DNA of 64,000 bases. Source: a virus (taxonomy: Duplodnaviria; Heunggongvirae; Uroviricota; Caudoviricetes). The stretch spans positions 46,771 through 110,770 of the IMG/VR virus record IMGVR_UViG_2974624538_000001; one strand, written 5' to 3'. This document shows, one piece after another, positions 28,811 through 43,109 of the stretch. The position numbers and the translations under genes are program-made. Under the pieces are notes generated by a model that did not search any database, had not been told where the DNA came from, and saw only the letters and a program-made list of their open reading frames with translations. The stretch's first letter is position 1. The number at the start of each line of letters is the position of its first letter.

Positions 28811-28812
28811 CC

Positions 28813-29647: not shown

Positions 29648-29648
29648 C

Positions 29649-30055: not shown

Positions 30056-30127
30056 TGTTCCTGAAGTTCAACGGATGAACAACTCCCTCCTAAGGAGTAG
30101 GCTGCTGGTTCGAATCCAGTCAGGAAC
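30056..30127 (+). tRNA. tRNA-Arg(CCT)
   Basis: acceptor GTTCCTG/CAGGAAC, D GTTC-AACGGAT-GAAC, anticodon arm ACTCC-CTCCTAA-GGAGT, T GCTGG-TTCGAAT-CCAGT. Confidence 0.7.
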
Positions 30128-30223
30128 ACTTTACAAGACACGGGGGCTTGGCCCGTCCCCCAATCATGAGTCTTGGGCTCTCGTCCATAGAGAGTTTATA
30201 GTTAACGGGCCTGCCAAGCTATG

Positions 30224-30393
30224 AGAATCAAAAAGGGCCGGGTGTATGAAATTGAGCCTGGTGGAAGAGCATATGAAATTCTGAATGATGATGAAATTAT
30301 CTATCTAAAGGACCTTCAGTCTGGTAAGATTGTTCAGAGATTTAGAGGACAACTAAAAACTGACCACATTCGTGATAAGCGACGTGGCGAATA
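30224..30393 (+). CDS. hypothetical small protein (57 aa)
   Basis: ATG directly after GCCAAGCT; stop codon abuts the tmRNA 5' end. Confidence 0.3.
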
Positions 30394-30661
30394 AGGGCCT
30401 GCTTGGTTTCGACTTTGCTGGACGGGATATAGACGCAACCCTTCTTGGTCAAAGAAGTAAAACGGGCCAAAACAATAGATGCAAATTCTAACTTTGCTCT
30501 CGCTGCGTAAGTAGCCGGATTTGTCGGGAACCTTGGAACAGAATCCCGACTAGACAAAATGTGTAGATAATGTGTAAGACCCTTCAGTGTGATTGACAAT
30601 GGTTGTAGAACGGATATATGCTAGATAGTGAAGGACAGGGGTTCGACTCCCCTCAGGTCCA
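30394..30661 (+). ncRNA. ssrA: tmRNA (SsrA), tag peptide (A)ANSNFALAA
   Basis: 5' GGGCCTGCTTGGTTTCGAC and 3' GGTTCGACTCCCCTCAGGTCCA form a tRNA-Ala-like acceptor with G3:U70; internal frame GCA AAT TCT AAC TTT GCT CTC GCT GCG TAA (30481-30510) encodes ANSNFALAA-stop. Confidence 0.75.
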
Positions 30662-30678
30662 CACAGAAAGATACGGTA

Positions 30679-30852
30679 ATGAAAGTAACTAATCTATATA
30701 TCTACGGTAACAGCGATTACCTACGTAGACTGGAAGAAGATTACGTGTTCATGGGTAGACAGGTGAGGCTAGAAGATGATAGGCTTATCGTATTCGCTCT
30801 CCCAAAGAAGAGGCGGAAGAAGTCTCCCAGCAAGCAGCGTCGTAGGCGTTGA
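30679..30852 (+). CDS. hypothetical small basic protein
   Basis: internal ATG of the 30628 ORF chosen to avoid overlapping the tmRNA 3' end; Lys/Arg-rich tail. Confidence 0.3.
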   Translation: MKVTNLYIYGNSDYLRRLEEDYVFMGRQVRLEDDRLIVFALPKKRRKKSPSKQRRRR

Positions 30853-31576
30853 CAGGCAGGGTTGGAACCTGCTAGAGTATGACTAAGAGGTCAGGCAGTC
30901 GGACAAGGCTTAGGCGGATGAGAGTAGTTCAAGCGGTGGTAACTTAAATGCCCACTTAATGATGCTCAACAAGCCGGTGGGATGCGAGTGGACTAGTCCT
31001 GACCTTTTAAGCTTGCAAGGTTCAGAGCAGATTAATCGCCAACGTAGGATAGCGTAGGTTGCCTTGCAGAGGCCCGAGGAGTAGGATGTGGGTAGGCAGT
31101 CGGAGCCGTTGCGTATGCGGCGGGGTTAGCGACGTGTAGGGTCTCAAGCTTCAATCTGTGGATAACGAAAGGGGTCCGGCGTTCTGTGAACTGGCAGTCG
31201 GGTAGCCTGGCATGATACAATAAGCCTCTAGCGGGGCTAGTCACCCAAGAGTAAAGTTCATTGAGGGTGAGCAGATTGAAAACATGGTTGCGAGAGGGCC
31301 AACGGGTATGCTAAGGTGGTGTACAACACCGAAGCGCAAAGGAGATAGGGGCACCAAGTAAATGGGTGCTGTGTATCGCAACCAAGCTTTGCAGCAAGCA
31401 GGCCAAACGCTATAGACAGGGATACAAGGTTCTGAAAAGGTAACGCCCATTTGGCAGGGTAGGAAGTTACCACCTGATGATATCCATGCTGCAACTATGG
31501 AGATGACCGGAAACTTCTCCATAAGCTTCCTTCGTAAAAGCTGTAATGTAGTAAACAAAACACGAAGGGTATTAAA

Positions 31577-32458
31577 ATGGGTTACATTGTTTTCGCTAGC
31601 ATCTTCGTTCTTATTGGACTGATTGCTCTTGGAGTCGGCTTTGCCGCACGAAATGAGCCGGGAGTCCGAAGGGGAGCGTTTGGTGTAACTGCGGGAATGT
31701 TTGTACTACTTCTTGTCGTCACTGCGTTTAATTCTGTGACTAGTGTTGGCGCTCGTAATGTTGGTATTCAGACTGCTTTCGGTCGATACCAGGGAACGCT
31801 TGACAATGGTCTTCAGATTATCGCTCCGTGGTCTGAGCACGAGGACTTCTCTACTCAGATTCAGTACCTTGACCTTGATGGTGATAAGGATTCGGATGGC
31901 GCTGAAGTGACTTTCGCTGGTGGTGGTCGCGGTGTTGTGATGGCTACTCCGCGTTGGTACATTAACGAGAAGGATGCTGGTCAGCTCTGGAAGAAGTACA
32001 AGAATTTCGACAATGTTCGGGACCAGCTTGTTCAGTCTTCTGCTAAGGCTTCCTTCCGTGATGTTGTAAAGGATTACGCTCCGAATGAGGCTCTTGTTCA
32101 GACTGGCAAGATTGCCAATGAGGTGAAGGCTAACCTTGAGGCTTCTCTTGCCGACGATGGTGTTAAGATTGATTCCATCAGTATCCGAACGATTCGCCTT
32201 GATGGTCGTAGTCAGCAGTCCCTTGACAAGATTGTTCAGGCTAACAACGACATTGAGCGTGCTAAGGCTGAGCAGGAGCGGGCTAAGATTGATGCCGAGA
32301 CTGCCAAGATTCGTGAGAAGACTGGTGCTCTCAAGCCTGAGGCTCTTCAGCGTTACTGCCTTGACGTTGTGAACAACTGGGATGTCAAGAAGAATGGTTC
32401 TCTGCCCGCAGGCTTTAACTGCAACAGCAGCGTTCCTTTCACTGTTACCAACAAGTAA
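31577..32458 (+). CDS. SPFH/band-7 (prohibitin/stomatin-like) membrane protein
   Basis: N-terminal TM segments followed by an SPFH-like core (IAPWSEHEDF...IRTIRLD) and a coiled-coil tail. Confidence 0.65.
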   Translation: MGYIVFASIFVLIGLIALGVGFAARNEPGVRRGAFGVTAGMFVLLLVVTAFNSVTSVGARNVGIQTAFGRYQGTLDNGLQIIAPWSEHEDFSTQIQYLDLDGDKDSDGAEVTFAGGGRGVVMATPRWYINEKDAGQLWKKYKNFDNVRDQLVQSSAKASFRDVVKDYAPNEALVQTGKIANEVKANLEASLADDGVKIDSISIRTIRLDGRSQQSLDKIVQANNDIERAKAEQERAKIDAETAKIREKTGALKPEALQRYCLDVVNNWDVKKNGSLPAGFNCNSSVPFTVTNK

Positions 32459-32515
32459 CAACAGGGTGGCCTTCGGGCCACCAAGCTTACCTGACAAATT
32501 ACCTAAGGAGTTGAA

Positions 32516-32818
32516 ATGGCTACCGGCAAGGAGCGCGGCTACAAGGATTGGAAGCTCTCCAAGGAATTTAAGCGCAGCGCTCGAAACTATACTGAGTCCG
32601 ATGTTATGCCCGCTCGTAAGGTCCGCCCCAAGAACGCTAAGAAGTGGTGTAAGAAGAAGGTCGGTCGTGAGCACAAGTTCGAGAAGACCGGAATGACTTT
32701 CTTTTGGGCGGGTTATTTTCCCTGGCAGACTCGTGACGAATGGCGTACTAGCTATAAGTGCACTGACTGTGGTGCCACTAAGACCGAAAGCATCTTCCGA
32801 AACAATCCGGTTGACTGA
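32516..32818 (+). CDS. hypothetical protein (C-terminal CxxC)
   Basis: ORF after hairpin+AAGCTT. Confidence 0.45.
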   Translation: MATGKERGYKDWKLSKEFKRSARNYTESDVMPARKVRPKNAKKWCKKKVGREHKFEKTGMTFFWAGYFPWQTRDEWRTSYKCTDCGATKTESIFRNNPVD

Positions 32819-32879
32819 TTGGACAGACAACCTCAGACTGGTATAATGGATAATGAATCCATCAAGTTGGGAGGAAATT

Positions 32880-33305
32880 ATGAGCGATACTTTCCTAGAA
32901 CAAATGGGATTTAAGTTCATTGCCGACCTATTGACGGAAATCCGAGAAGGCCAGATGAGATTGGAGGTTACAATGGCAGACCTACAGACAGAAGTTGCAA
33001 ACCTTCGTGACGCGGTAACCGGTGTTTCACAGCGTGTTGACGCTCTCGTTGGTCCTCTTACGGATGCCGTAAGGGAGGCACAGGATGCTCTTGCAGCAGA
33101 GCGTGAAGCAGCCGCAAATCTAGCAGCAGCAGAAGATGCTGAGGACGTTGAGCAGAACCGTCAGCTAGACGAGGCTAAGGCAGCAACAGACGCCGCTCTC
33201 GCAAATGCTCAGGCAGCAGCAGATGAGATTGGAGCTGAGACATCACGTCTTAATTCAATCGCACAGCCTGCAAATCCAGAGCAGCCAGAAGAGCCAACAG
33301 CCTAA
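32880..33305 (+). CDS. coiled-coil protein (Ala/Glu-rich)
   Basis: ATG with GGGAGG RBS inside the 32853 ORF; low-complexity AAEDAEDVEQ repeats. Confidence 0.45.
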   Translation: MSDTFLEQMGFKFIADLLTEIREGQMRLEVTMADLQTEVANLRDAVTGVSQRVDALVGPLTDAVREAQDALAAEREAAANLAAAEDAEDVEQNRQLDEAKAATDAALANAQAAADEIGAETSRLNSIAQPANPEQPEEPTA

Positions 33306-33324
33306 TAACAACTGAATACTTCAG

Positions 33325-33355
33325 AACCCCGCTTCGGCGGGGTTTCTGTTTTTGG
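33325..33355 (+). terminator. rho-independent terminator
   Basis: GAACCCCGCttcgGCGGGGTTTCTGTTTTT. Confidence 0.6.
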
Positions 33356-33362
33356 AGGATGT

Positions 33363-33545
33363 ATGATAAAGTTCTATGCAATTGCATGTGACCAAGCAGA
33401 AGCAATTAAGAATTGTGCTTCAGGCAAGTATACGAATCAGCCATATTGGCCTGAGCATAAAACTTTGGTACCATATCTAAAGAGAGCGCAAGAAGAGAAT
33501 CCAGAACTTCAATTGAGAATCTTCGTAATTAAGGTTGGTGGATGA
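33363..33545 (+). CDS. hypothetical protein
   Basis: ORF. Confidence 0.35.
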   Translation: MIKFYAIACDQAEAIKNCASGKYTNQPYWPEHKTLVPYLKRAQEENPELQLRIFVIKVGG

Positions 33546-33822
33546 CATGTCAAAGAGCCGGAAGAAGTTTCTTTGCCTGGATTGCGGAATTGATACCGGG
33601 CGGATTGGCGAACACTACATGCTCATTGATGAAACATGGCACTTGACAGGGCTTCGTAAGTATGGAATGCTCTGTATTGAGCACGTAGAGAGCCGGATTG
33701 GAAGGAAGCTCGTTCCATCTGATTTTAACAACTCGTATTTGAATCGAGCAAGAACTGGTATTGTAAGCCAGAGACTATCGGATAGGATGATGCTAAATGG
33801 AAACCAACGAGCTGGTGAATGA
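33535..33822 (+). CDS. hypothetical zinc-finger protein
   Basis: CLDCG...C..H pattern. Confidence 0.35.
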   Translation: MVDDMSKSRKKFLCLDCGIDTGRIGEHYMLIDETWHLTGLRKYGMLCIEHVESRIGRKLVPSDFNNSYLNRARTGIVSQRLSDRMMLNGNQRAGE

Positions 33823-34159
33823 GTTCCTTCTTGACAAGTTTAAGAGGGAGGCGAAGCAGAGGTATCGAATTGGATTTGCGAGAGAAGATGAGCTTCCTGG
33901 ATACGATAAGGAAAAGCATCTAGCAAATTGTGAGACAACTTCCATTCGAAGTGCTGAATGTGAATGGTCTTGTGGATGTTATTCATGTTACACTCGTGAT
34001 GACAGTTTTGATATGTCTGCGCATGTAGGTTGTGATTGCGGCGTAGAAATGCGTTGGCGTTACGGTTACATGTACGATTTGCCAAATTTCATCACAGAAC
34101 TTGATGAGTACAAGAACAATGAAGTTTGTAGTCACAGCGATGATTGCGAATACTGCTAG
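33797..34159 (+). CDS. Cys-rich hypothetical protein
   Basis: many Cys pairs (CEWSCGCYSCY, CDCG, CSHSDDCEYC). Confidence 0.4.
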   Translation: METNELVNEFLLDKFKREAKQRYRIGFAREDELPGYDKEKHLANCETTSIRSAECEWSCGCYSCYTRDDSFDMSAHVGCDCGVEMRWRYGYMYDLPNFITELDEYKNNEVCSHSDDCEYC

Positions 34160-34193
34160 AACATGGTAAACTAAAAAGACCCGAAAGGGTCCG

Positions 34194-34268
34194 GCACACG
34201 TAGCCCAATTTGGTAGAGGCGCAGCGTTGAGGTCGCTGTTGTTGGAGGTTCGAGTCCTCTCGTGTGCA
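34194..34268 (+). tRNA. tRNA with anticodon GAG in a class-I (short variable arm) scaffold, nominally Leu(GAG), atypical
   Basis: acceptor GCACACG/CGTGTGC, anticodon arm CAGCG-TTGAGGT-CGCTG, T GGAGG-TTCGAGT-CCTCT; no long variable arm. Confidence 0.45.
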
Positions 34269-34269
34269 C

Positions 34270-34459
34270 GTCCTTGTAGCTTAAAAGGAAGAGCGCCGTA
34301 AAAACGGAGACGGGTCATGGTAGGATGGTTTGCGGATGCACCGGGACCGGGCCGTGGTACTTAAAAGGTACATGGTTGGGGAACCTTAACCCCCGGCAGG
34401 GAAGCGCGTATATTCCACGTCTACCTACATTGGTGTGAGTTCGAATCTCACCGGGGACA
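34270..34459 (+). ncRNA. 190-nt composite tRNA-like element (acceptor, D-arm and T-arm modules around a ~115-nt insertion)
   Basis: 5' GTCCTTG-TA-GCTT-AAAAGGAA-GAGC and 3' GTGAG-TTCGAAT-CTCAC-CGGGGAC pair as an acceptor stem; AGACG/CGTCT stem flanks an insert with hairpins and GGATGG/ATATTCC motifs. Confidence 0.4.
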
Positions 34460-34630
34460 CATGGTATATTTGAGAGTAGGTGGCCGGGCCACAATTTGTG
34501 AAAACCATATCATCAATGGCGTCAATTACAAGAATGTAACCGGTCGCGTACTGATGATTACTCGCAAGCTTGTGACCCTTGAAGTTGGACGAACAACGCT
34601 TTTTATTCCAAAGGATAAGGTGGTTCCAGC

Positions 34631-34906
34631 ATGAGTTATATCGTTTGGCGTGACCTTCTTGATATGGACGAGGATGACCCGATTTTCGAGCGGGTCAATG
34701 GACTGGATGATATTATCGTTCAGAAGTATCAGCAAGGTTGGGTAGAAGATGAATTTGGGCAGGGTTGGACAATTGAACAGGCTGAGGAATACATGAAGGA
34801 AAAGGGCTATCCTGCCTTCTTTCCAGAGCCTAGCAGCTACAATACTTTGCTCATCCTTATTCACATGATTAAGAATGGAGAAATTGACCTCAATGGGAAT
34901 CTTTAA
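34631..34906 (+). CDS. hypothetical protein
   Basis: ORF. Confidence 0.4.
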   Translation: MSYIVWRDLLDMDEDDPIFERVNGLDDIIVQKYQQGWVEDEFGQGWTIEQAEEYMKEKGYPAFFPEPSSYNTLLILIHMIKNGEIDLNGNL

Positions 34907-35060
34907 GCGAAATGGCTTTAGCAAGGGCCAGAAGGTTTATGTGGTTCGTAAGGCCGAGTTTGGTCGCATTGAGCAGTTCAAGGACGGACTGATTAAGGTT
35001 CGTGGCTTTAAGACTGGCGAGATGTGGGTTCGTGCCTCAGACATTGAGGCAGGAGACTAA
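34875..35060 (+). CDS. small KOW-like protein
   Basis: KGQKVYVVRKAEFGRIEQFKDGLIKV pattern. Confidence 0.4.
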   Translation: MEKLTSMGIFKRNGFSKGQKVYVVRKAEFGRIEQFKDGLIKVRGFKTGEMWVRASDIEAGD

Positions 35061-35079
35061 CAAAAGCCCTTCGGGGCAT

Positions 35080-35169
35080 GGAAGTGTGGCTGAGTCCGGT
35101 TTAAGGCGCTTCACTGCTAATGAAGTGGTTTCGTAAAGAGGCCCGCAGGTTCGAATCCTGTCACTTCCG
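35080..35169 (+). tRNA. tRNA-Ser(GCT)
   Basis: acceptor GGAAGTG/CACTTCC, anticodon arm GCTTCA-CTGCTAA-TGAAGT, long variable arm containing GGTTTCGTAAAGAGGCCC, T GCAGG-TTCGAAT-CCTGT. Confidence 0.75.
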
Positions 35170-35205
35170 CTGCTACCCTATGTAGAACCGTGTAGGGGCT
35201 ATGCA

Positions 35206-35559
35206 ATGTACCACGGGGTTGGTATCCCGAACGGTTCAAGCTATAATGGTGTCATGAAGATGAATCGACATCGTTACGAGGGGAGTTTCGTAAGACGTCA
35301 CAGTCTTTCGCTAGCTCTCCTTTTTGTTTTCTTGCTTCAATCAATCATCGTATGGTACAGTGGCTACGCAGATTGGAAGCAGGACCAAATTACACACAAG
35401 CAGGATGTTGCAATCTGGCCGGGGTTCGTGATTTACTATCTCTATCAGATGTCAGTCAGCATCGTAGCTGATACGTATGGGGCTCTCCTTCTGGTACTTT
35501 TTGCTAAATGGTTCTATGAAAAGGGTAGCCCAGAATCGGAAGACAATGGGAATTCTTAG
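35206..35559 (+). CDS. membrane protein
   Basis: three predicted TM helices. Confidence 0.4.
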   Translation: MYHGVGIPNGSSYNGVMKMNRHRYEGSFVRRHSLSLALLFVFLLQSIIVWYSGYADWKQDQITHKQDVAIWPGFVIYYLYQMSVSIVADTYGALLLVLFAKWFYEKGSPESEDNGNS

Positions 35560-35701
35560 AAGGAAATGGAAGTTTAAGAAAAAGGATTGTCCTCACATGC
35601 ACATTCGAAATATCCACGGTGATGAAATTATCGCAGCGGGTTGGAAGAGAAGTCAGTGCATGGATTGTGGTAAGTTCTTCAATAACCTAAACGGAAGGTA
35701 A
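35477..35701 (+). CDS. hypothetical zinc-ribbon protein (start uncertain)
   Basis: CPHMH...CMDCGKFF. Confidence 0.3.
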   Translation: MGLSFWYFLLNGSMKRVAQNRKTMGILRRKWKFKKKDCPHMHIRNIHGDEIIAAGWKRSQCMDCGKFFNNLNGR

Positions 35702-35706
35702 AAGAA

Positions 35707-36774
35707 ATGGTACACGTTTCGTCAATCTTCTCTGTGGATGACCTGGAGAAGGCAATTGCTGATGGTTGGGTGCGAGTTCAGACCAATGAGGACAACACCC
35801 TGTCTATTTACAATTACACTGAGGAGGCTCAGTATAAGCGTTACTGGAATGAGGTAACGCTGAATTGCCGTGGCTTGATTCTCGACAACTACATGCACGT
35901 CGTTGCCCGTCCTTGGAAGAAGTTTTTCAATTTCGGTGAGCGGCCTCTTCTTTTCAGCACTGACACTCCGGTTGAGGTGACGGACAAGAAGGATGGCAGT
36001 CTTGGCATTCTTTATCGACACCCGATGACTGGCGATTATCGAATCGCTACGCGAGGGTCTTTCCTTTCGGAGCAGGCTCTTCACGCAACGGATGTCTGGA
36101 ATGACAAGTATTCCCATATTGCTCAGCCGTGGGATGGAGTGACTTTCTTGTTCGAGATTGTGTATCCCGAGAACCGAATTGTTTTGAACTATGGTGAGAT
36201 GGATGACCTTATCCTTCTCGGTGCGGTTCACAATCAGTACGGTTGGTATTACGGTCCGAACGAGACTGCCGGGATGCTCAACTGGACTGGTCCAGTCACG
36301 GAGGTCTTTGAGTACCGCACCACGAACGACTGCTTCAAGGTGCATCGCTCAAATGCTGAGGGTCTGGTAATTCGGGCGGGCAGCGAGATGGTCAAGATGA
36401 AGCAGGAGGACTACGTAGCTTTGCACAAGCTGGTTACGGGTCTTAATGAGCGAGCAGTCTGGGAGCGCTTGAAGGATGGTGAGAGCCGTGCTAGTATCTG
36501 TTCAGCACTACCGGATGAGTTCCACGACTTTGTTGACAGGGTTGCAGATGACCTAGAGGCTCAGTTCAAGGAGATTTACCACAGTTCACACGTGGACTAT
36601 TGTAAGATTCTGAACAAGATGCCTGGCAAGTCTTCTATGGCTCAGAGTGAATGGCGAAAGCTATTCGCTTCGTATGCGACAAAGATGCCCAACTATGACC
36701 TTATCTTCAACTACTTGGACAACCGACCGGTTGCTGAGTCGATTTGGAAGATGATTCGTCCGAAGGGTGAGTAA
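35707..36774 (+). CDS. ATP-dependent RNA ligase (Rnl family, T4 Rnl-like)
   Basis: nucleotidyltransferase motif I TDKKDGSLG (KxDG), motif FEIVYPENRIV; 355 aa; followed by a polynucleotide kinase. Confidence 0.6.
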   Translation: MVHVSSIFSVDDLEKAIADGWVRVQTNEDNTLSIYNYTEEAQYKRYWNEVTLNCRGLILDNYMHVVARPWKKFFNFGERPLLFSTDTPVEVTDKKDGSLGILYRHPMTGDYRIATRGSFLSEQALHATDVWNDKYSHIAQPWDGVTFLFEIVYPENRIVLNYGEMDDLILLGAVHNQYGWYYGPNETAGMLNWTGPVTEVFEYRTTNDCFKVHRSNAEGLVIRAGSEMVKMKQEDYVALHKLVTGLNERAVWERLKDGESRASICSALPDEFHDFVDRVADDLEAQFKEIYHSSHVDYCKILNKMPGKSSMAQSEWRKLFASYATKMPNYDLIFNYLDNRPVAESIWKMIRPKGE

Positions 36775-36933
36775 TTAAATGTGGTTCCTGATTCCCCCAG
36801 CATATCTGTTACTTGGAATTGCTGGGGGTTCTTGGGTTAACTTGTCATTTTGGTCTGGTCTACTGACACTATGTGTGGTAGGTTGGGTTAAGTCAAGCTA
36901 ACCACTGCGGGCTAGTCCCGCAAGCTTGGAGGT

Positions 36934-37206
36934 ATGATGGATTACGAAAAGATTATTGATGGATATAATGACCTTCGTGAGACATGTCTTGTCATCGCTA
37001 AGCTTAACGATGAGTTGATGGGTCCAGACAGATGGTTGAAGTTTGCCATCCAAGACTCAGACATCACGTTGATGTTTACAGAGCGAGGCGTTGTGTGCTA
37101 TGGTAGTGCTTACACGACACAGACGATGGACAACGAACACTTCAGTTTCATGATTCCGTTCGAGTATCTAGAGGAGTTTGAGGCAAATGCTAGAGATGGT
37201 GATTAA
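36934..37206 (+). CDS. hypothetical protein
   Basis: ORF after hairpin+AAGCTT+GGAGG. Confidence 0.45.
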   Translation: MMDYEKIIDGYNDLRETCLVIAKLNDELMGPDRWLKFAIQDSDITLMFTERGVVCYGSAYTTQTMDNEHFSFMIPFEYLEEFEANARDGD

Positions 37207-37606
37207 TCGGGGGATTCCCGGAAGCGGTAAGTCCACGTATGCTCGAAAGTGGGTCTTGACGCCTGGTACACGACGTGCTAGGGTTAATCGTGATGACATT
37301 CGGAAGCAGCTTTATGGAGTTGATTTCGGGGTTCCGATTGAAGAGACTGTAGTTACGGCAATTGAAGACCAGATGATTCACACTCTCCTTGCAGAGGGAG
37401 TCTCGGTTATCGTTGACGACTGCAATATTTCACAGAAGTACATCAACAGATTCACCAAAATTGCTGAGCAGTATGGTGCAGAGGTGAGTGTAAACCTCAT
37501 CAATGTTGACCTTCAGACAGCAATCAACAGGAATCAGGGCCGTGAGCGTTTTGTTCCTGTCCATGTGATTAAGCGGATGTACAAGCAACTTCAGGAGTCT
37601 CTGTGA
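37178..37606 (+). CDS. polynucleotide 5'-kinase (T4 Pnk kinase-domain-like P-loop kinase)
   Basis: GIPGSGKSTYARKW Walker A similar to the T4 Pnk N-terminus; 142 aa kinase domain only. Confidence 0.6.
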   Translation: MRQMLEMVINRGIPGSGKSTYARKWVLTPGTRRARVNRDDIRKQLYGVDFGVPIEETVVTAIEDQMIHTLLAEGVSVIVDDCNISQKYINRFTKIAEQYGAEVSVNLINVDLQTAINRNQGRERFVPVHVIKRMYKQLQESL

Positions 37607-37800
37607 TGTTTCTGGGCATTCTTGGCGCGCTGCTTGTAACATGGTTCCTTGCCGGGTTCTTCCTTGCAGGTATTTGGGCGGGAATGGCATCATCAATGTG
37701 GTATGATAGACTGACTGGATGGCTGGTTAGCTCTGGTTGCCTCGGTCTTTGGTACTGGATTGTAGGGACCCATATTAACTGGGGAGGTTTGATTAAGTGA
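37603..37800 (+). CDS. small membrane protein
   Basis: two TM helices. Confidence 0.4.
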   Translation: MMFLGILGALLVTWFLAGFFLAGIWAGMASSMWYDRLTGWLVSSGCLGLWYWIVGTHINWGGLIK

Positions 37801-38018
37801 ACATTCCTGAGGCGGATTACTTTGACAACATTGAAGTAATGCCACACGAAGAGGATTTCACAATGTGGAAGGTGGTTGGCGTCAGAGTTGATATTGACCA
37901 TGTTAAGATGACCACACTTAAGGAGTACATTGCCAACAAGCCTCTTGCGGAAGCGTTCGTAAGATGGTACACTGATAAGTATTGGTCGGACATGCTCGAT
38001 GGTGCACAAGATTGTTGA
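37797..38018 (+). CDS. hypothetical protein
   Basis: ORF. Confidence 0.4.
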   Translation: MNIPEADYFDNIEVMPHEEDFTMWKVVGVRVDIDHVKMTTLKEYIANKPLAEAFVRWYTDKYWSDMLDGAQDC

Positions 38019-38041
38019 GCAACTGCGGCTTCGGCCGCAAG

Positions 38042-38071
38042 CTTGACAACCACATTGGTTGTCTGTTAGTA
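38042..38071 (+). promoter_or_regulatory. sigma70-like promoter AAGCTTGACA-N18-TAGTAT with palindrome GACAACCA/TGGTTGTC over the -35
   Basis: about 17 nt upstream of tRNA-Leu(TAG). Confidence 0.5.
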
Positions 38072-38087
38072 TAGAATACATAATGCA

Positions 38088-38168
38088 AGCGCCCGTGGCG
38101 GAATTAGGCAGACGCGCTGGTCTTAGGAACCAGTCTTTCGGGGTGCAGGTTCGAGTCCTGTCGGGCGT
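38088..38168 (+). tRNA. tRNA-Leu(TAG)
   Basis: acceptor GCGCCCG/CGGGCGT, anticodon arm CTGGT-CTTAGGA-ACCAG, long variable arm, T GCAGG-TTCGAGT-CCTGT. Confidence 0.7.
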
Positions 38169-38198
38169 ACTTTATCGTTAATTACAAAGGGGAATGTA

Positions 38199-38369
38199 AT
38201 GGGTTACACGCGAGTCCGCAAGGGTGACAATGTTTTTGTCCAGAAGGGTCCGGACAAGGGCAAGAAGTTGAAGGTCACGGAAGAGGGCAAGGGTATGAAC
38301 CGGGATTACATCAAGTTGTCGAATGGTGAGTGGTATCACCAGGACATGGTTTCCGGCACTGGGATGTAA
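38199..38369 (+). CDS. small KOW-like protein (56 aa)
   Basis: KGDNVFVQKGPDKGKK... strongly KOW/L24-like. Confidence 0.4.
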   Translation: MGYTRVRKGDNVFVQKGPDKGKKLKVTEEGKGMNRDYIKLSNGEWYHQDMVSGTGM

Positions 38370-38409
38370 AAAATGGCGGGGTTCGCCCCGCCAAGCTTAG
38401 GAGGTCATA

Positions 38410-38601
38410 ATGGCTAAGAGACCAAGAATGAATTCTCCTGTTAGAATCACAAAACCAAATAACGCAATCAACAGGAGATACAAGAACGAACTTGGTATCA
38501 TTTTTGATATCAAGACAGAAGGACGAAATACTTATTATATGGTTCGTCTAAATGGAGGTCACGAAATCTCAGTTGATAAGAGCGAGATTACGGTGCTATG
38601 A
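38410..38601 (+). CDS. small KOW-like protein
   Basis: ORF after hairpin+AAGCTT+AGGAGG. Confidence 0.45.
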   Translation: MAKRPRMNSPVRITKPNNAINRRYKNELGIIFDIKTEGRNTYYMVRLNGGHEISVDKSEITVL

Positions 38602-38789
38602 AACTACCACATTATATCAGTAGAAAGTCATGGTCACAGGGTGACCGAGTGGTTGTCGCAGTTGGACAGTACAAGGGCAAACATGGTACGGTGAAGCTAT
38701 TCGCCACGAAGCACAACTACTTGGTGCTTCTTGATGGTGAAGAGAGACCAAGACAGTTTCACAAAGGTGCACTAGACCCAGAGAAGTAG
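38598..38789 (+). CDS. small KOW-like protein
   Basis: GDRVVVAVGQYKGKHGTV. Confidence 0.45.
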   Translation: MKLPHYISRKSWSQGDRVVVAVGQYKGKHGTVKLFATKHNYLVLLDGEERPRQFHKGALDPEK

Positions 38790-38985
38790 GAGATTAAAAT
38801 GGGCAGAGGCGGAATGAGTCCAGTTCCACCATCAGCTAAGTACGCCGTTAAGTGTGATAAGTCAAACACTGGTAAGCATAAGCCACAGACTTACGAAGGT
38901 AAGTTTGATGGAAAGCCTATCAAGTGGAAGGCTTGCACAGAGTGCGGTTTTACGCTAAAGTAATACCAAGGCCCTTCGGGGTCAC

Positions 38986-39057
38986 GCCGGGTTAGCTCAG
39001 TGGGAGAGCGTCTGCCTTACAAGCAGAGGGCCGGGGGTTCGAATCCCTCACCCGGTA
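38986..39057 (+). tRNA. tRNA-Val(TAC)
   Basis: acceptor GCCGGGT/ACCCGGT, D GCTC-AGTGGGA-GAGC, anticodon arm TCTGC-CTTACAA-GCAGA. Confidence 0.7.
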
Positions 39058-39181
39058 CACTATTCTCTTGAAGTGCCAGCATTAGCAGAGAGAAGGCCAT
39101 TGGCGTCTGGCAGCGCTCGAATGGTACCCTGTGGGTAGTAACCACTTGGGAGGGGTTGAGCCTAGGGCTATCTCCCAACAT

Positions 39182-39266
39182 GGCCGCATGGCGGAATTTG
39201 GCATACGCGATAGTCTCAAAAACTATTGTCCGAAAGGAATTGAGGGTTCAAGTCCCTCTGCGGCTA
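39182..39266 (+). tRNA. tRNA-Leu(CAA)
   Basis: acceptor GGCCGCA/TGCGGCT, anticodon arm ATAGT-CTCAAAA-ACTAT, long variable arm, T GAGGG-TTCAAGT-CCCTC. Confidence 0.7.
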
Positions 39267-39290
39267 CTTCCCGAAACAAAAAGGAGAACA

Positions 39291-39506
39291 ATGATGCAGT
39301 TTACTCAGGTTGACGAAGATGCTTTTGATGTTCGTGTGAATCTCAACACGATTTCACGAATTGGTGAGGCTTTTGATGCTCTTGTCGGTTCTGGAAACGC
39401 AGACGAGCGCGATGAAGTTCTTCGTAGGTCTTTCAATGGCGCTTATGCCAAGTTGACTCAGTCTGACGCTGAAGAGGTTGAAGAGGCTGATTCCGGTCTT
39501 GAGTGA
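39291..39506 (+). CDS. hypothetical acidic protein
   Basis: ATG with AAAAGGAGAA RBS downstream of tRNA-Leu; the longer 39156 ORF overlaps the tRNA. Confidence 0.45.
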   Translation: MMQFTQVDEDAFDVRVNLNTISRIGEAFDALVGSGNADERDEVLRRSFNGAYAKLTQSDAEEVEEADSGLE

Positions 39507-39553
39507 CCCTGCGGCCCTTCGGGGCCGCTAGCTTTTTGAGAGAGGGTGGAAAA

Positions 39554-39778
39554 ATGTCCAAGTGGATTCAGCCGGGACACCGGATTATGGACAAGGCGTA
39601 TTTGCGCCACGGCCGAGTGACATACACTGGCGAACAACTTGTGCTAGCATTGCTGCTACACACCAAGGGTCGAACCAAGCGAGGCTCAGGAGAGCTTGAG
39701 CAGGTAGCTAAGATGCTTGATGACCCGAATGTAAATCGAAAGAGGAAGAACCCCCGTAGGAAGCCTAAGGCAGCCTGA
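39554..39778 (+). CDS. hypothetical basic protein
   Basis: RBS GAGAGGGTGG; internal ATG of the 39503 ORF. Confidence 0.4.
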   Translation: MSKWIQPGHRIMDKAYLRHGRVTYTGEQLVLALLLHTKGRTKRGSGELEQVAKMLDDPNVNRKRKNPRRKPKAA

Positions 39779-39806
39779 CGGGGGTTTCCCGTTTAAGGAG
39801 ATAATC

Positions 39807-40160
39807 ATGGCACAAATCATTATCAACCGTTCAGATTCTAGATGTGGTAATTGTGGTAAGCCAGCCTTTATGGAAGAGAATGGGCATTACACAATTGCTG
39901 GTTACAAGGACAACGGAAAGCCGGGTTGCGGAGAGAGCTGGGATAGTGTAGGCTCTGACTATCTCGACATTCCTGAGATGGTTGCTTCCAGTGACCAGGG
40001 TTACTGGTTTGCAGACAATTTGCGGGGGCTTCCCGTTTATGATGCAGCACATACAGAGTCGATTGGAGTTTACGGTGGCCCGTCAAGAAAGAATGCGGAA
40101 GTGTCAGCGCTGCGGCGTCAGGCGGATATCTCCGTTTCTAGAGACGACAATTTGCGGTGA
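39807..40160 (+). CDS. hypothetical protein (CxxC pairs)
   Basis: ORF with AAGGAGA RBS. Confidence 0.45.
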   Translation: MAQIIINRSDSRCGNCGKPAFMEENGHYTIAGYKDNGKPGCGESWDSVGSDYLDIPEMVASSDQGYWFADNLRGLPVYDAAHTESIGVYGGPSRKNAEVSALRRQADISVSRDDNLR

Positions 40161-40337
40161 ATGCAAGGCACTCGATATCATTGGAGAGATAAGAAATGGC
40201 GGATTGGTACAGGGACCACAATGTGAGTCCGGAAGCAGTGAGTGACGAAGAGTATCGTGACTGGCTTGCTGTGAACGTAGGGGTTGAAGAGGCAGAGCGC
40301 TTCTGGTATGGTGTTGAAGACGCAGAGTTTCTAGGGG

Positions 40338-40577
40338 ATGATGATGGCTGGACTTCCTAAGAAGATGTATTACGTGCTTATCAAGCCTGGCGGTAAGCCT
40401 CTCGGGTATGGTAAAAAGGGTGGTGGAACATACACCATCGAGAAGAACGCACGTGGGCAGTATGAGCATCTGAAGTCTCAGGGATGCAAGGTTGAGCTTT
40501 ACACTACTGAAGTTAGCTGGAGCATGCTAGAGTCTAATGTAAACGACCCAATCGAAGGGCAGGAACCACTATGGTAA
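40338..40577 (+). CDS. hypothetical protein
   Basis: ORF. Confidence 0.4.
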   Translation: MMMAGLPKKMYYVLIKPGGKPLGYGKKGGGTYTIEKNARGQYEHLKSQGCKVELYTTEVSWSMLESNVNDPIEGQEPLW

Positions 40578-41059
40578 TGTATGTCAAGGGTGACGCTACT
40601 AAGCCTCAGGGTGATGGTAAGAAGATTATCGCCCATGTTTGTAATGATGAGGGCGGATGGGGAGCAGGATTTGTTCTCGCTCTTGATAGGATGTCACCGT
40701 TGCCGCGCATTTCTTATCTCCAGGAATACAAGTATTGGACCAAGAATGAGGGTCTGACTTTCATCCCTCTTGGCCTGATTCAGGTTGTTAGCGCTGGACA
40801 TGCAAATCCTGATGTTGAGGTTTGCAACATGATTGCTCAGCACCGAACAATTCGAAATGTTCCAAAGCCTATTTGTTACAAGTCTCTTGAGGTTGCTCTC
40901 ACCCGACTTGCTGAGGAGGCTATTGAAAAGAATGCTACGGTTCATATGCCTCGTATCGGTTGCGGACTTGCGGGTGGCGACTGGAACGTGGTAGAGTCAA
41001 TCATCAACCGAACGCTAACGCTGAGGGATGTTGACGTGACTGTGTATGACCTGCCGTAA
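40571..41059 (+). CDS. Macro domain protein (ADP-ribose binding/hydrolase)
   Basis: IAHVCNDEGGWGAGFVLAL and HMPRIGCGLAGGDW macro-domain signatures. Confidence 0.7.
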   Translation: MVMYVKGDATKPQGDGKKIIAHVCNDEGGWGAGFVLALDRMSPLPRISYLQEYKYWTKNEGLTFIPLGLIQVVSAGHANPDVEVCNMIAQHRTIRNVPKPICYKSLEVALTRLAEEAIEKNATVHMPRIGCGLAGGDWNVVESIINRTLTLRDVDVTVYDLP

Positions 41060-41122
41060 TTCGGCCGGGGTTCGTAAAGAACCCCAAGCTTCATTGGTTC
41101 GTAAACAAAGGAGAAATAACCA

Positions 41123-43048
41123 ATGCGACCTAATGCAAATGTGGCTGAGCGCAAGGGTGACCTTGGTGGCCAGAAGATTGCAATGACGTTTGACCAGAAC
41201 AGTCTAGCTCATCTTATGAATGTCATGACCGACCTTTATGCCGATGCCGAGCTTGCGGTAATTCGTGAGTACAGCACTAATGCATGGGATTCGCACAAGG
41301 CGGCGGGCATTAATAAGCCTATTGAGGTTACGCTTCCTAATGGACTTTCACCTTACTTCAAGGTGAAGGATTATGGTCTGGGAATGGATATTGACGATAT
41401 TGAGAACATCTATTCTCAGTATGGTGCTTCTACCAAGCGTGACACTGATGACCAAGTTGGTATGCTTGGTCTGGGATGTAAGTCTGCACTCTCTTATACC
41501 CAGCAATTTAACGTTGTGGCCGTGAAGAATGGTCACAAGTACAATGTTGCTGTGAGTAGGACTGAGAATGGTTCTGGTGTTATGGAGATTGTTCTTGACA
41601 CTGAGACCGATGAGCCTAATGGCGTGGAAATCATTGTCCCTGCTAAGCGTGGAAACATGTTTGAGCAGAAGGCTAAGGAGTTTTACCAGTTCTGGGAGCG
41701 CGGAAGTGTTCTTGTTAATGGTGAAGAGCCTGATTACATTTCCGGCCGGGAGGTGAAGGATGGACTTCTTATGGTTCCCGAGCTGTCCAAGGATTACCTG
41801 ATTATGGGTAACGTTGGATATCCTCTCGATGACCGACACCAGATTGGTAATCGCACCTATTACTCTCGATATGGTGTTGTTGCTCGTGTTGAGATTGGTG
41901 ATGTCAACTTTACGCCTTCTCGTGAGTCTCTGCACTACACGAAGAAGACTGAGGCTACTATCAATCGAATCCGTGAGGAATTCAAGACGGGGCTCGATGG
42001 AATTGTTGAGCGTGATGTTACTGCCTGTGCAACTCAGGAAGAGGCTCTTAACACTTATCTTGAGTGGTACAATCTTCTTGGCGGCGGATACAATCGATAC
42101 CCGTTTGCTGATGTTGAATACCAGGGCAAGAAGGTTCCTCTGCGAATTGAGCACCCCTTCCTTGTGTATAAGGTGAATCACACGCGATATGCAGTTGATT
42201 CTCACAACTTCATTGACATCAAGACTGCGCGCGATACCCCTATCATTTATGGGTTCGCTGGTGAAAAGATTAGCGGCCATCAGCGAGAGAAGATGCGTAC
42301 ATGGCGCACTCTCAATGGATTCACTTCCAACAACATTCTTATCTGTGATGAACTGCCGGATGTTCTTGAAGAGGATTGGATTCCTGAGAGCAAGGTCTAC
42401 TCTTGGGATGACGTAAAGACTGCTAAGGCTCCAGGCCAGAAGTCTGGTCGGCCCGCTGCTCTGTATGACGTTTATCTGCCGGGTGCCACTCGCATCAAGC
42501 AAATCAAGGCTGACGAATTTCCTGAGGATGTGGAAATTGCTCTGGTGGCTCCGAGGGACCTGCCTAACTTCCGTACCGTTAAGGCTTTCCTTGAGGAGAA
42601 GGACAATGTTATGATTGTTCGACTTCAGCAGTACCGTTGGGAAAAGTTCCGCAGGAGTTACCCTGATGCAAAGGACCTTACTTCCTTCTTCAAGGAAATG
42701 TATGAGTCTGCCGTTAATGGTCTGACTGAGGATGACAAGTTCAACCTTGGCCTTGACTACCGGGTGCGAAGTCTGCTACAGTCTCTTAATGAGAAGGAAA
42801 TTGCAGACCCGGAGCTGGTAACGGCAATCATCGCTGCAAAGGAGGTCAAGCCTAGCGATACTCTCAAGCGATATGAGCAAATGAAGGAGCTGTATGGCAA
42901 CTTCCACTTTGCCCGCTATGGCCAGAGGGAAGTCGAGAGGGTCAATCCTCTTGAGAAGTATGTTCTTCTCAAGTATCATTACTACGACATGGACATTGAG
43001 CACGCAACGGTTTACATCAATGCGGCTTACGAGAAGTTCGTAAAGTAA
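41123..43048 (+). CDS. GHKL-family ATPase domain protein (possibly rIIA-like)
   Basis: N-terminal Bergerat-fold motifs (EYSTNAWDS N-box, DYGLGMD G1, GMLGLGCKSAL G2); 641 aa. Confidence 0.45.
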   Translation: MRPNANVAERKGDLGGQKIAMTFDQNSLAHLMNVMTDLYADAELAVIREYSTNAWDSHKAAGINKPIEVTLPNGLSPYFKVKDYGLGMDIDDIENIYSQYGASTKRDTDDQVGMLGLGCKSALSYTQQFNVVAVKNGHKYNVAVSRTENGSGVMEIVLDTETDEPNGVEIIVPAKRGNMFEQKAKEFYQFWERGSVLVNGEEPDYISGREVKDGLLMVPELSKDYLIMGNVGYPLDDRHQIGNRTYYSRYGVVARVEIGDVNFTPSRESLHYTKKTEATINRIREEFKTGLDGIVERDVTACATQEEALNTYLEWYNLLGGGYNRYPFADVEYQGKKVPLRIEHPFLVYKVNHTRYAVDSHNFIDIKTARDTPIIYGFAGEKISGHQREKMRTWRTLNGFTSNNILICDELPDVLEEDWIPESKVYSWDDVKTAKAPGQKSGRPAALYDVYLPGATRIKQIKADEFPEDVEIALVAPRDLPNFRTVKAFLEEKDNVMIVRLQQYRWEKFRRSYPDAKDLTSFFKEMYESAVNGLTEDDKFNLGLDYRVRSLLQSLNEKEIADPELVTAIIAAKEVKPSDTLKRYEQMKELYGNFHFARYGQREVERVNPLEKYVLLKYHYYDMDIEHATVYINAAYEKFVK

Positions 43049-43109
43049 TTGATACGCTCCCGAAAGGGAGCAAGCTCCGGAAAACTAATCTAATATTAGG
43101 AGAAAATAA

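Follow-up and report, generated by a model that had tools for sequence, protein, structure and literature searches.

A predicted Rnl1-family RNA ligase and a polynucleotide kinase without its phosphatase half in the tRNA island of Streptomyces phage Gilson

Introduction

Neighboring genes for an RNA ligase-like and a kinase-like protein in Streptomyces phage Gilson raise the question of whether this phage brings its own enzymes for mending broken RNA into the cell and, if so, whether the set matches the ligase and kinase-phosphatase pair of phage T4. We addressed this in a 64,000-nucleotide stretch of the Gilson genome (MK061412, bases 46771-110770), referred to here as the window, starting from an initial annotation made from the letters and open reading frames (ORFs) alone; all coordinates are window positions.

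Results

The features on which the analysis rests are collected in Table 1. The gp151-gp153 block that holds the ligase and kinase genes is flanked by tRNA-Ser(GCU) at 35080-35170 and tRNA-Leu(UAG) at 38089-38170. The initial annotation had counted about 30 tRNAs and a tmRNA, which agrees with the 31 tRNAs and single tmRNA found by ARAGORN and Rfam; of the Ro60/Y RNA pair that it had also proposed, the Ro60 protein stands (gp106, with TROVE and vWA_Ro60 matches), whereas for the Y RNA no match reached the Rfam gathering score and the one partial match, to YrlA at 21307-21364, gave 27 bits where the gathering score is 69. The G+C content of the phage is 44 to 54% in 2-kb windows; that of Streptomyces hosts is typically above 70% (PMC12509530). 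Codon usage alone can account for the large tRNA set. A scan for promoters and terminators around the locus returned counts no higher than those for shuffled sequence.

Table 1 Features of the window discussed in the text, in order of position
Feature	Coordinates	Strand	Basis and remarks
gp84, NT5C-like HAD phosphatase (weak candidate for 3'-end healing)	13789..14358	+	Pfam NT5C 1e-6; adjoins dNMP kinase
tRNA island	18212..50424	+	31 tRNAs (ARAGORN, Rfam); ligase and kinase genes embedded
gp106, Ro60 RNA-binding protein	22060..23676	+	Pfam vWA_Ro60 3e-56, TROVE 1.5e-36
gp111, predicted RNase AS/Rv2179c-type DEDDh 3'-5' exoribonuclease	25448..26008	+	PDB, Pfam, NCBIfam
tmRNA	30395-30662		Within tRNA island (ARAGORN, Rfam)
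gp151, predicted Rnl1-family ATP-dependent RNA ligase, 355 aa	35707..36774	+	PHROG 562, Pfam, PDB, T4 alignment
Membrane-peptide ORF, 40 aa	36779..36901	+	Conserved; directly 3' of ligase; unannotated in Gilson
gp152, 89 aa	36937..37206	+	Gene overlaps kinase start by 20 nt
gp153, predicted polynucleotide 5'-kinase domain alone, 139 aa	37187..37606	+	PHROG 505, PDB, T4/Evy alignment
gp172, metallophosphoesterase (weak candidate for healing in trans)	44364..45143	+	Pfam Metallophos 2e-11
gp207, predicted single-domain Rnl2-like ligase, 215 aa	55685..56332	+	Pfam, PHROG, AF2 fold match

The ORF beginning at 35707, taken by the initial annotation for an Rnl-type ligase on account of its KxDG motif, encodes gp151, which GenBank names "RNA ligase" and which carries TDKKDGS with K94 as the motif I lysine. 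Profile and structure searches bore this out: PHROG 562, the family of T4 gp63 (the T4 annotation agrees), matches residues 18-352 of 355 with an E value of 2.3e-70, Pfam RNA_lig_T4_1 matches at 3.5e-14, and the T4 Rnl1 structures 2c5u, 9do4, and 5tt6 are the sole significant PDB matches (E about 1e-15 to 1e-16). Identity to T4 Rnl1 is about 31%, and the alignment shows 11 of 12 T4 catalytic residues retained in gp151. These are the Rnl1-specific N-terminal residues upstream of motif I, R55, K72, and F74 (T4 R54, K75, and F77); K94, D96, and G97 (T4 K99, D101, and G102); E150 in FEIV (T4 E159); E218 and G219 in EGLV (T4 E227 and G228); and K230 and K232 in VKMK (T4 K240 and K242). The exception, T4 K119, is R116 in gp151, a conservative swap that the ligase of Streptomyces phage Evy has made as well. 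Past about residue 260 the two proteins align weakly, with scattered identities, and the C-terminal region that confers tRNA specificity in T4 Rnl1 is among the parts affected. The gene is under purifying selection in Gilsonvirus (dN/dS of 0.10 to 0.14) and lies shortly upstream of the kinase gene, as T4 rnlA lies before pseT. By sequence, gp151 is an Rnl1-family ligase, predicted to be ATP dependent. T4 Rnl1 also has a role in tail-fiber attachment, which is unlikely to hold for Gilson, a siphovirus.

The GIPGSGKST P-loop that had marked the 37178-37606 ORF as T4 Pnk-like belongs to gp153, named "polynucleotide kinase" in GenBank, whose start is more likely the ATG at 37187 than the TTG at 37178 because the former fits both the alignment with T4 and Evy Pnk and the GenBank call. 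The likeness to T4 was upheld by profile: T4 Pnk (1ly1, 1ltq), rather than a dNMP or adenylate kinase, is the top PDB match (E 2.6e-11 to 1e-10, T4 residues 3-146), Pfam AAA_33 matches at 8.6e-20, and PHROG 505, the T4 pseT family, matches with an E value of 2e-34 over profile positions 1-143 of 295 only. Set against the T4 reference residues K15, S16, D35, R38, and R126, gp153 keeps K15, S16, D36, R39, R115, and R119, the last two within RNQGRER. It is homologous to the T4 kinase domain from end to end, including the P-loop, the general-base Asp, and the Arg residues, and it ends at the T4 kinase/linker boundary. T4 Pnkp continues into a C-terminal HAD (DxDxT) 3'-phosphatase, whereas gp153 does not, and no copy of that domain was found elsewhere: tblastn of the whole Gilson genome gave nothing better than an E value of 1.5, and the best match of a Pnkp-phosphatase HMM over the genome was a nonsignificant one to gp84 (E 0.26). 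The phosphatase half of Pnkp, which the initial annotation had singled out as something to look for, is thus absent genome-wide by both searches. Because the C-terminal HAD domain (DxDxT, PF25109) is absent, gp153 is a Pnk kinase and not a Pnkp, and since only the kinase half is present, T4-style heal-and-seal is not fully encoded by gp151 and gp153. Other characterized Pnkp enzymes include those of mycobacteriophages Omega and Cjw1.

The kinase-only form is not peculiar to one genome. Gilson, Comrade, and Moab all conserve it, at 139 to 141 aa in divergent Gilsonvirus genomes, with a dN/dS of 0.06 to 0.20 across the genus (similar to the ligase) at dS values of up to 1.5; as judged from these substitution rates, the short form is maintained and not decaying. 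Relatives of the stand-alone kinase fall into 55 sequence clusters of 107 to 173 aa, nearly all of 138 to 173 aa, and the Pnkp phosphatase domain was found in none of the 55; the genomic contexts of the distant kinase-only homologues gave no further information and have no ligase nearby. The closest full-length Pnkp relatives of gp153 are in the BE1-type phages (Boydwoodruffvirinae), Evy gp190 and MindFlayer gp201, which at 299 and 296 aa, respectively, comprise a kinase and a PF25109 HAD phosphatase (HAD_PNKP E 5e-52 for Evy). The BE1 genes lie within the tRNA region shortly downstream of the Rnl1 gene, matching the order in Gilson, and the kinase half of the 299-aa Evy protein is 52% identical to gp153. 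Together, sequence and gene order suggest that gp153 descends from a bifunctional Pnkp.

Two small ORFs lie between the ligase and the kinase. A near-identical counterpart of the 40-aa ORF occupies the same place in Comrade and in Moab, where it is annotated as gp146. The second, gp152, is confined to Gilson-like phages (16 homologues, 25 invariant columns) and has a dN/dS of 0.03 against Comrade. Its AF2 model is confident (pLDDT 90) and has no significant fold match in the PDB (best E 0.098). An Acb2/Tad1-like sponge was considered for gp152 and rejected, the Pfam match being weak (E 0.03) and the confident model lacking a significant PDB fold match.

The second KxDGxN nucleotidyltransferase that the initial annotation had placed at 55685 is gp207, in which EKVDGTN is present and Pfam RNA_ligase (PF09414) matches at 1e-17. 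PHROG 548 matches at an E value of 2.9e-28 over profile positions 3-232 of 341. In Foldseek, the AF2 model (pLDDT 94) is closest to the nucleotidyltransferase domain of T4 Rnl2 (1s68/2hvr; E about 1e-11, TM 0.74), followed by NgrRnl and REL1, with DNA ligases trailing by over six orders of magnitude. Family members are about 203 to 236 aa long, one reaching 304 aa, and K42, E105, F126, D127, E185, G186, K206, and K208, covering motifs I, III, IIIa, IV, and V, are invariant in 34 of them. Although gp207 shares the nucleotidyltransferase motifs and predicted fold of T4 Rnl2 and Naegleria NgrRnl (Rnl5), it has neither the N-terminal domain of NgrRnl nor the C-terminal domain of Rnl2: it ends 7 residues past motif V, without the C-terminal helical domain needed for 5'-adenylylation of nicks. 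On its own, the nucleotidyltransferase domain of T4 Rnl2 is defective in 5'-adenylylation during nick sealing, so it is uncertain how active the proteins of this minimal family are.

A DEDDh exonuclease had likewise been noted in the 25382-26008 ORF, and the motifs are present (YDTEF, YDHVA, and HNALDDA) in gp111, which starts at 25448 and is labeled "DnaQ-like DNA polymerase III subunit" in GenBank. The matches are to another enzyme: Pfam Rv2179c-like at 5.5e-12, the Mycobacterium tuberculosis Rv2179c structures 4oke, 4hec, and 6s0m at E values of about 1e-35 over Rv2179c residues 2-154, and NCBIfam RNase_AS at 2e-53, with 180.8 bits falling just under the equivalog cutoff of 200. Aligned over the whole of M. 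tuberculosis RNase AS (Rv2179c), gp111 keeps the DEDDh residues and differs by insertions totaling about 24 residues. On these matches we correct the annotation of gp111 to a predicted exoribonuclease of RNase AS type, not a DnaQ subunit.

We also considered which phage proteins might heal 3' ends in place of the missing phosphatase. A metallophosphoesterase can stand in for the HAD phosphatase in bacterial Pnkp/Hen1-type end healing (PMC4411300). Such systems, exemplified by Clostridium thermocellum (Cth) Pnkp/Hen1 and Capnocytophaga Pnkp1-Rnl-Hen1, include a Pnkp1 kinase domain to which gp153 is similar (4xrp, E 1.2e-10), but unlike them Gilson has no Hen1 methyltransferase and no fused phosphoesterase. 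Searched against the PDB, the family profile of the metallophosphoesterase gp172 gives Dbr1, which debranches RNA lariats, as its best match (E 8.6e-7 over nearly the full length) and YfcE as the next; up to an E value of 1, the matches include no chain of Cth Pnkp or lambda phosphatase. Because gp172 homologues also occur in BE1 phages that have a full Pnkp, gp172 is not a lineage-specific replacement, and we rejected it as such; nor is it of the Cth-Pnkp/lambda-phosphatase type. The HAD phosphatase gp84 was rejected as a split-off Pnkp HAD domain: it is NT5C-like, its match to the Pnkp-HAD HMM is the nonsignificant one given above, and in Gordonia and Mycobacterium phages the genes around its homologues belong to nucleotide metabolism or replication. 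Among the matches listed, all Streptomyces ones are in Gilson-type phages, and Evy lacks gp84; this complementary occurrence of gp84 and full Pnkp amounts to one evolutionary contrast, and we treat it as no more than a lead. Pfam scans of the larger hypothetical proteins tested found Macro and NADAR domains and no 2H, HD, RtcA/RtcB, Tpt1, or CCA-adding domains. Of two metallophosphoesterases encoded outside the window, gp238 has an uncharacterized Aquifex protein as its sole match and gp50 has no match.

Discussion

What we observe for this locus are the protein families with their catalytic residues, the domain architecture, the synteny, and purifying selection, and we think it probable that with gp151 and gp153 the phage supplies its own enzymes for repairing RNA breaks, a pair of common descent with T4 Rnl1/Pnkp. 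The substrates of the pathway, an anti-defense role, and the 3'-end healer are what we infer beyond this. In the proposed pathway, gp153 would phosphorylate 5'-OH RNA ends with ATP, and gp151 would adenylylate itself at K94, pass the AMP to the 5'-phosphate, and join that 5' end to a 3'-OH; likely substrates would be host or phage-encoded tRNAs nicked by host ribonucleases during infection. With nothing but the kinase half of Pnkp kept in the Gilson lineage, another enzyme would have to clear 2',3'-cyclic phosphates and 3'-phosphates, perhaps a phage metallophosphoesterase, a HAD phosphatase, or a host enzyme; alternatively, the pathway may be confined to breaks that already bear a 3'-OH. gp207 (Rnl2-like) and gp111 (RNase AS-like), encoded elsewhere in the genome, may act as further RNA-end enzymes. 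Several observations weigh against this reading: the Pnkp 3'-phosphatase, which T4 requires against PrrC, is absent from the genome by both searches; no 2H or HD cyclic phosphodiesterase domain was seen among the hypothetical proteins scanned; gp172 occurs alongside full Pnkp in other phages; and codon usage alone would suffice to explain the tRNAs. The RNA ligases and polynucleotide kinases of actinobacteriophages and large phages have been read as a counter to RNA-cleaving defenses (PMC7302621, PMC7824862), and an anti-defense role for gp151 and gp153 is a reasonable inference.

The pair might instead serve routine nucleic acid housekeeping rather than evasion of defense, whether it processes or salvages the tRNAs or tmRNA that the phage encodes or repairs DNA 5' ends, an explanation that we find unlikely but still deserving of some weight. 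It would suit the position of the genes inside the phage's own tRNA/tmRNA island, the activity of T4 Pnk on DNA as well as RNA, a genome in which a DNA ligase is neither annotated nor detectable, and a missing 3'-phosphatase that fits classic anticodon-nuclease cuts poorly. However, the tRNA predictions give no hint of introns or split genes for which a ligase would be required, and to our knowledge the sole established biological role of the T4 pair is the reversal of PrrC damage. A more speculative variant of RNA repair, which we hold to be rather improbable, is a rewired heal-and-seal in Gilson-type phages, with the Pnkp HAD domain replaced in trans (for example, by gp172 or gp84) or dispensable for breaks with a 3'-OH and with gp152 as an accessory subunit of the kinase.

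The remaining explanations concern what the proteins are. It is quite improbable that gp153 shares only the fold of Pnk and is some other small P-loop kinase or ATPase, be it PSTK/Kti12-like and tRNA associated or a small-molecule kinase. Its Pfam match is to the generic AAA_33, with weak KTI12 and Zeta_toxin matches, its best NCBIfam match is PSTK (52 bits, far under the cutoff), and the Moab copy is annotated "AAA-ATPase"; against this, the PDB search places T4 Pnk ahead of PSTK, PHROG 505 matches at the E value given above, D36 and R39 on the phosphoacceptor side are conserved, and the protein is syntenic with, and 52% identical to, the kinase half of a bifunctional Pnkp in sister phages. 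Loss of the phosphatase domain relative to the BE1 phages might also mark a decaying Pnkp remnant in a defunct repair pathway, but the selection analysis largely refutes this: the 139- to 141-aa form has been kept at low dN/dS over dS values reaching 1.5, the catalytic residues are all intact, and stand-alone homologues form a broad clade, which leaves decay with very little probability. We give the least credence, next to none, to the ligase-like proteins being DNA ligases or capping enzymes and the kinase being a dNMP or adenylate kinase. The KxDG motif is common to all covalent nucleotidyltransferases and no DNA ligase is annotated in Gilson; yet RNA ligases came first in profile, sequence, and fold searches, a T4 DNA ligase query found nothing in the Gilson genome, and a separate dNMP kinase, gp83, exists (PF21448, 2.7e-18). 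The profile searches, which could have overturned the initial annotation on this point, instead placed the ligases as Rnl1- and Rnl2-like and the kinase with T4 Pnk.

The gene set is ordinary and already annotated, and the notion of phages carrying RNA-repair sets is already published; the one modest architectural twist is a kinase without its phosphatase half. That twist makes the two sister phage groups a natural experiment, in which a full kinase-phosphatase stands against a conserved kinase-only form, and their comparison could reveal which 3'-end chemistry matters during infection of Streptomyces and whether any phosphoesterase has taken over. In addition, gp207 draws attention to a large, uncharacterized family whose members are minimal, Rnl2-like predicted ligases of a single domain. 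The RNA-repair kit is an established idea in T4, and comparative genomics has already widened it to actinobacteriophages and jumbo phages; if the inferred function is true, Gilson would add one more phage kit for surviving the tRNA-cutting ribonucleases of its host.

A T4-like ligase and kinase pair in the tRNA island of Gilson

Streptomyces phage Gilson (Stanwilliamsviridae, Loccivirinae, Gilsonvirus) has a genome of 128 kb, deposited as MK061412 / NC_048742. The window corresponds to bases 46771-110770 of that record, so that subtracting 46770 from a record position gives the window position; its segment 35000-38000 matches Gilson at 100% by megablast. The initial annotation had proposed an RNA repair set of two ligases, a kinase and an exonuclease, accompanied by tRNAs, a tmRNA and Ro60; on inspection of the sequence its ORFs and motifs lie where it had placed them, with family matches far above chance, and we counted 31 tRNAs and the tmRNA with ARAGORN and found TROVE and vWA_Ro60 domains in Ro60. 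The features discussed here are collected in the table.

Features of the Gilson window, with public record names and assignments made here
Feature	Coordinates	Public record name	Assignment or observation
gp68	7238-7465		PnuC-like nicotinamide riboside transporter fragment
gp80	12140-12592		Cytidylyltransferase-like, PF01467, E 4e-15
gp84	13789-14358		NT5C-like HAD phosphatase; adjoins dNMP kinase
Motif pair	about 21177-21240		UUCGGGUCGGAUG...AUAUCCGU
Candidate Y RNA-like element	21251-21415		Intergenic, upstream of rsr
gp106 (rsr)	at 22060	Ro-like RNA binding protein	Ro60
tRNA-like sequence	25162-25235		28.0 bits against Rfam tRNA gathering 29
gp111	25448-26008	DnaQ-like DNA polymerase III subunit	RNase AS-type DEDDh exonuclease
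gp118	26922-27722		vWA-TerF-like domain, Pfam E 5e-24
tRNA-Asn	29251-29325		Overlapped by gp130, same strand
gp130	29265-29396		CDS
Small ORFs	34461-35060; 38199-38789		About 55-65 aa, among tRNAs
gp151	35707-36774	RNA ligase	Rnl1-family ligase
40-aa ORF	36779-36901	unannotated	Predicted membrane peptide, directly after ligase gene
gp152	36937-37206		20-nt overlap with kinase start
gp153	37187-37606	polynucleotide kinase	Kinase-only Pnk
Small ORF	38598-38789		Weak uL24/KOW match, E 1e-3
gp168	40577-41059	hypothetical	Macro domain, E 5e-5, above Pfam cutoff
gp169	41123-43048	hypothetical	rIIA-like, PHROG 612, E 1.7e-97
gp172	44364-45143		Calcineurin-type metallophosphoesterase
gp204	54259-54753	hypothetical	NADAR domain, E 1e-25
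gp207	55685-56332	RNA ligase	Minimal Rnl2-like ligase
gp212	57216-57593	hypothetical	SsgA match, Pfam E 4.5e-14

Residues 18-352 of gp151 match PHROG 562 (E 2.3e-70), which the annotated T4 record identifies as the family of T4 gp63 (Rnl1), and the protein also matches Pfam RNA_lig_T4_1 (E 3.5e-14); in the PDB, only T4 Rnl1 reaches significance (2c5u, 9do4, and 5tt6; E 6e-16 to 4e-15). Residues essential in T4 Rnl1 were compared in an alignment with T4 Rnl1 and the homologue from Evy, a BE1-type phage. R54, K75, F77, K99, D101, G102, E159, E227, G228, K240, and K242 of T4 correspond to R55, K72, F74, K94, D96, G97, E150, E218, G219, K230, and K232 of gp151, whereas K119 is replaced by Arg (R116) in both Streptomyces phages. 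The C-terminal third aligns weakly with T4, and this region still falls inside the PHROG profile match.

The kinase, gp153, matches PHROG 505 (E 2e-34), the family of T4 pseT (Pnkp) per the annotated T4 record, and Pfam AAA_33 (E 8.6e-20). Its top PDB match is T4 Pnk (1ly1, E 2.6e-11; 1ltq, E 1e-10), in an alignment that covers T4 residues 3-146 and ends there. In a five-sequence alignment gp153 coincides exactly with the kinase domain and keeps K15, S16, D36, R39, R115, and R119, whereas the T4, Evy, Clautastrophe, and NihilNomen proteins run on into a DxDGT HAD phosphatase. Evy gp190 (299 aa) matches PF25109 HAD_PNKP (E 5e-52); like gp153, it and MindFlayer gp201 (296 aa) lie a short way downstream of an Rnl1 gene.

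The short Pnk is not peculiar to Gilson: it measures 139-141 aa in Gilson, Comrade, and Moab alike, and a large protein database contains 55 clusters of related sequences, of 107-173 aa with few outside 138-173 aa; many of these lie on contigs of about 130 kb. In Gilson/Comrade/Moab comparisons, in which dS reaches 1.5, dN/dS is 0.06-0.20 for the kinase versus 0.10-0.14 for the ligase; the kinase-only Pnk of Gilsonvirus is stably maintained, with no decay. The Pnkp phosphatase domain matches 121 Streptomyces phage records. Each of the best 60 is a phage genome of 120-136 kb and, one unannotated record aside, the match there lies inside an annotated polynucleotide kinase gene, which is the BE1 arrangement of Evy and MindFlayer.

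Between ligase and kinase, the 40-aa ORF is kept in Moab (annotated gp146) and Comrade. gp152 is strongly conserved, and its homologues were found only on contigs or genomes of Gilson-like phages. Its confident model (pLDDT 90) shows a helical hairpin, a three-stranded sheet and a C-terminal helix; a search for structural neighbors returned none of significance, so a reading as Acb2/Tad1, for which there is a weak Pfam match, is unsupported.

A second RNA ligase and an RNase AS-type exonuclease

The second ligase proposed initially, gp207, belongs to an RNA ligase family by both Pfam (PF09414, E 1e-17) and fold. Its likeness to T4 Rnl2 is weak by sequence and clear by structure: the AF2 model (pLDDT 94) matches the Rnl2 nucleotidyltransferase domain (1s68, 2hvr; E ~1e-11, TM 0.74), followed by Naegleria NgrRnl, trypanosome REL1, and archaeal RNA ligases, with DNA ligases far behind at E 1e-5 or worse. 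The family is large and single-domain (~203-236 aa), with invariant ligase motifs, and gp207 lacks the C-terminal domain of T4 Rnl2. By itself, the nucleotidyltransferase domain of T4 Rnl2 is not known to carry out 5'-adenylylation at a nick, so any sealing activity of this minimal family is putative. The Gilson annotation contains no DNA ligase, and a T4 DNA ligase query matches nothing genome-wide; gp151 and gp207 are the only nucleotidyltransferase-type ligases in the whole genome.

For gp111, the evidence favors the original designation of exoribonuclease over the GenBank name "DnaQ-like". It matches Pfam Rv2179c-like (E 5.5e-12) and NCBIfam RNase_AS (E 2e-53, slightly below the equivalog cutoff), and aligns across the whole of Mycobacterium tuberculosis RNase AS (Rv2179c; E ~1e-35) with the DEDDh residues kept; by these alignments it is a close homologue of this mycobacterial poly(A)-specific exoribonuclease.

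Other features of the window

The candidate Y RNA-like element has a long terminal stem (AGCCCCUAAUGAU...AUCAUUAGGGGCU) around a tRNA-like module, and a fold z-score of -2.6. Rfam YrlA matches it in part, at 21307-21364 (27.4 bits versus gathering 69; E 7e-4 in a local search). A second copy of the UUCGGGUCGGAUG...AUAUCCGU motif pair lies just upstream. The tRNA-like sequence, which is flanked by tRNA-Arg(GCG) and gp111, has neither an ARAGORN call nor a GenBank annotation. gp118 lies between tRNA genes and carries a vWA-TerF-like domain; it is therefore a second vWA protein besides Ro60 in the tRNA island. The small ORFs among the tRNAs encode similar basic, beta-rich sequences by eye, and the one with the uL24/KOW match echoes the "ribosomal protein uL24" annotation in BE1 phage Riptide (PMC12509530). 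Of the overlapping gp130 and tRNA-Asn calls, one is probably an error, and this is most likely gp130.

gp168 and gp204, with ADP-ribose-reversal domains, may counter DarT-type ADP-ribosylating defense toxins. gp169 immediately precedes gp170, which is annotated as rIIB-like. The match of gp212 to the Streptomyces sporulation/cell-division protein SsgA marks it as a putative host-like developmental regulator on a phage. gp80 adjoins two glycosyltransferases, with gp68 further upstream, and may have a part in the metabolism of sugar nucleotides or NAD.

Search for a 3'-end healing enzyme

The pair had been likened to T4 Rnl1 and Pnkp; of Pnkp, the kinase half alone is present, and the phosphatase domain is absent from the whole genome. 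T4 Pnkp aligned with the Gilson genome by tblastn over T4 residues 1-147 only, three phosphatase domains used as tblastn queries against the whole genome gave a best E of 1.5, and an HMM built from five Pnkp phosphatase domains gave nothing significant among all six-frame ORFs (best E 0.26).

No substitute healer sought in Gilson is convincing. HAD, calcineurin-like, HD, and 2H phosphoesterases occur in large phages (PMC7824862); among the larger hypothetical proteins of Gilson, Pfam scanning gave no 2H, HD, RtcA/RtcB, or Tpt1 domains. BE1 phages with full Pnkp carry gp172 just as Gilson does, and members of its family are common in phages of Streptomyces and Mycobacterium. Of solved structures, the RNA lariat debranching enzyme Dbr1 stands closest to the family, in a profile match of nearly full length (E 8.6e-7), and not a phosphatase of the Cth Pnkp or lambda type; the Dbr1 match hints that the substrate is a 2'-5' or cyclic phosphodiester in RNA. 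Of two other metallophosphoesterases encoded outside the window, gp238 resembles an uncharacterized Aquifex protein alone, and gp50 resembles no solved structure. The Streptomyces matches listed for gp84 are all Gilson-type phages of 125-131 kb (28 Streptomyces records overall), and gp84 was not found at the syntenic site in Evy; its presence thus complements the kinase-only architecture, in a single contrast. Its homologues in Gordonia and Mycobacterium phages adjoin dCMP deaminase or replication genes, and nucleotide metabolism is its likelier role.

Proposed function of the pair

The best-supported reading is that gp151 and gp153 repair RNA breaks, most likely in tRNA: gp153 would phosphorylate 5'-OH ends and gp151 would seal the 5'-phosphorylated ends onto 3'-OH, mirroring T4 Rnl1 and Pnkp in families, residues, and gene order. 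It is also plausible that the pair serves in the upkeep of RNAs made by the phage itself or mends DNA ends. After T4 Pnk, the PDB matches of gp153 pass from Capnocytophaga Pnkp1 (1.2e-10) to an uncharacterized P-loop NTPase (9drz, 3.6e-07) and archaeal PSTK (2.2e-06); a different P-loop kinase is unlikely, because gp153 descends from Pnkp. That the shortened gp153 is a decaying remnant is contradicted by the selection analysis, and the initial RNA ligase and kinase identities hold, with DNA ligase, capping enzyme, and dNMP kinase refuted at the family level.

The repair set is thus correct but already known, since the genome annotation and the concept both precede this analysis: RNA ligase and polynucleotide kinase genes of actinobacteriophages have been described as probably directed against RNA-cleaving defenses (PMC7302621), and large phages carry tRNAs with Rnl1, Rnl2, or RtcB ligases, Pnk, TROVE/Ro, and Macro domains (PMC7824862). 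Novelty is only modest and is limited to the stably maintained kinase-only Pnk of Gilsonvirus and the question of 3'-end healing, for which either healing is supplied in trans (by gp172, gp238, gp50, gp84, or the host) or only breaks with 3'-OH ends are handled.
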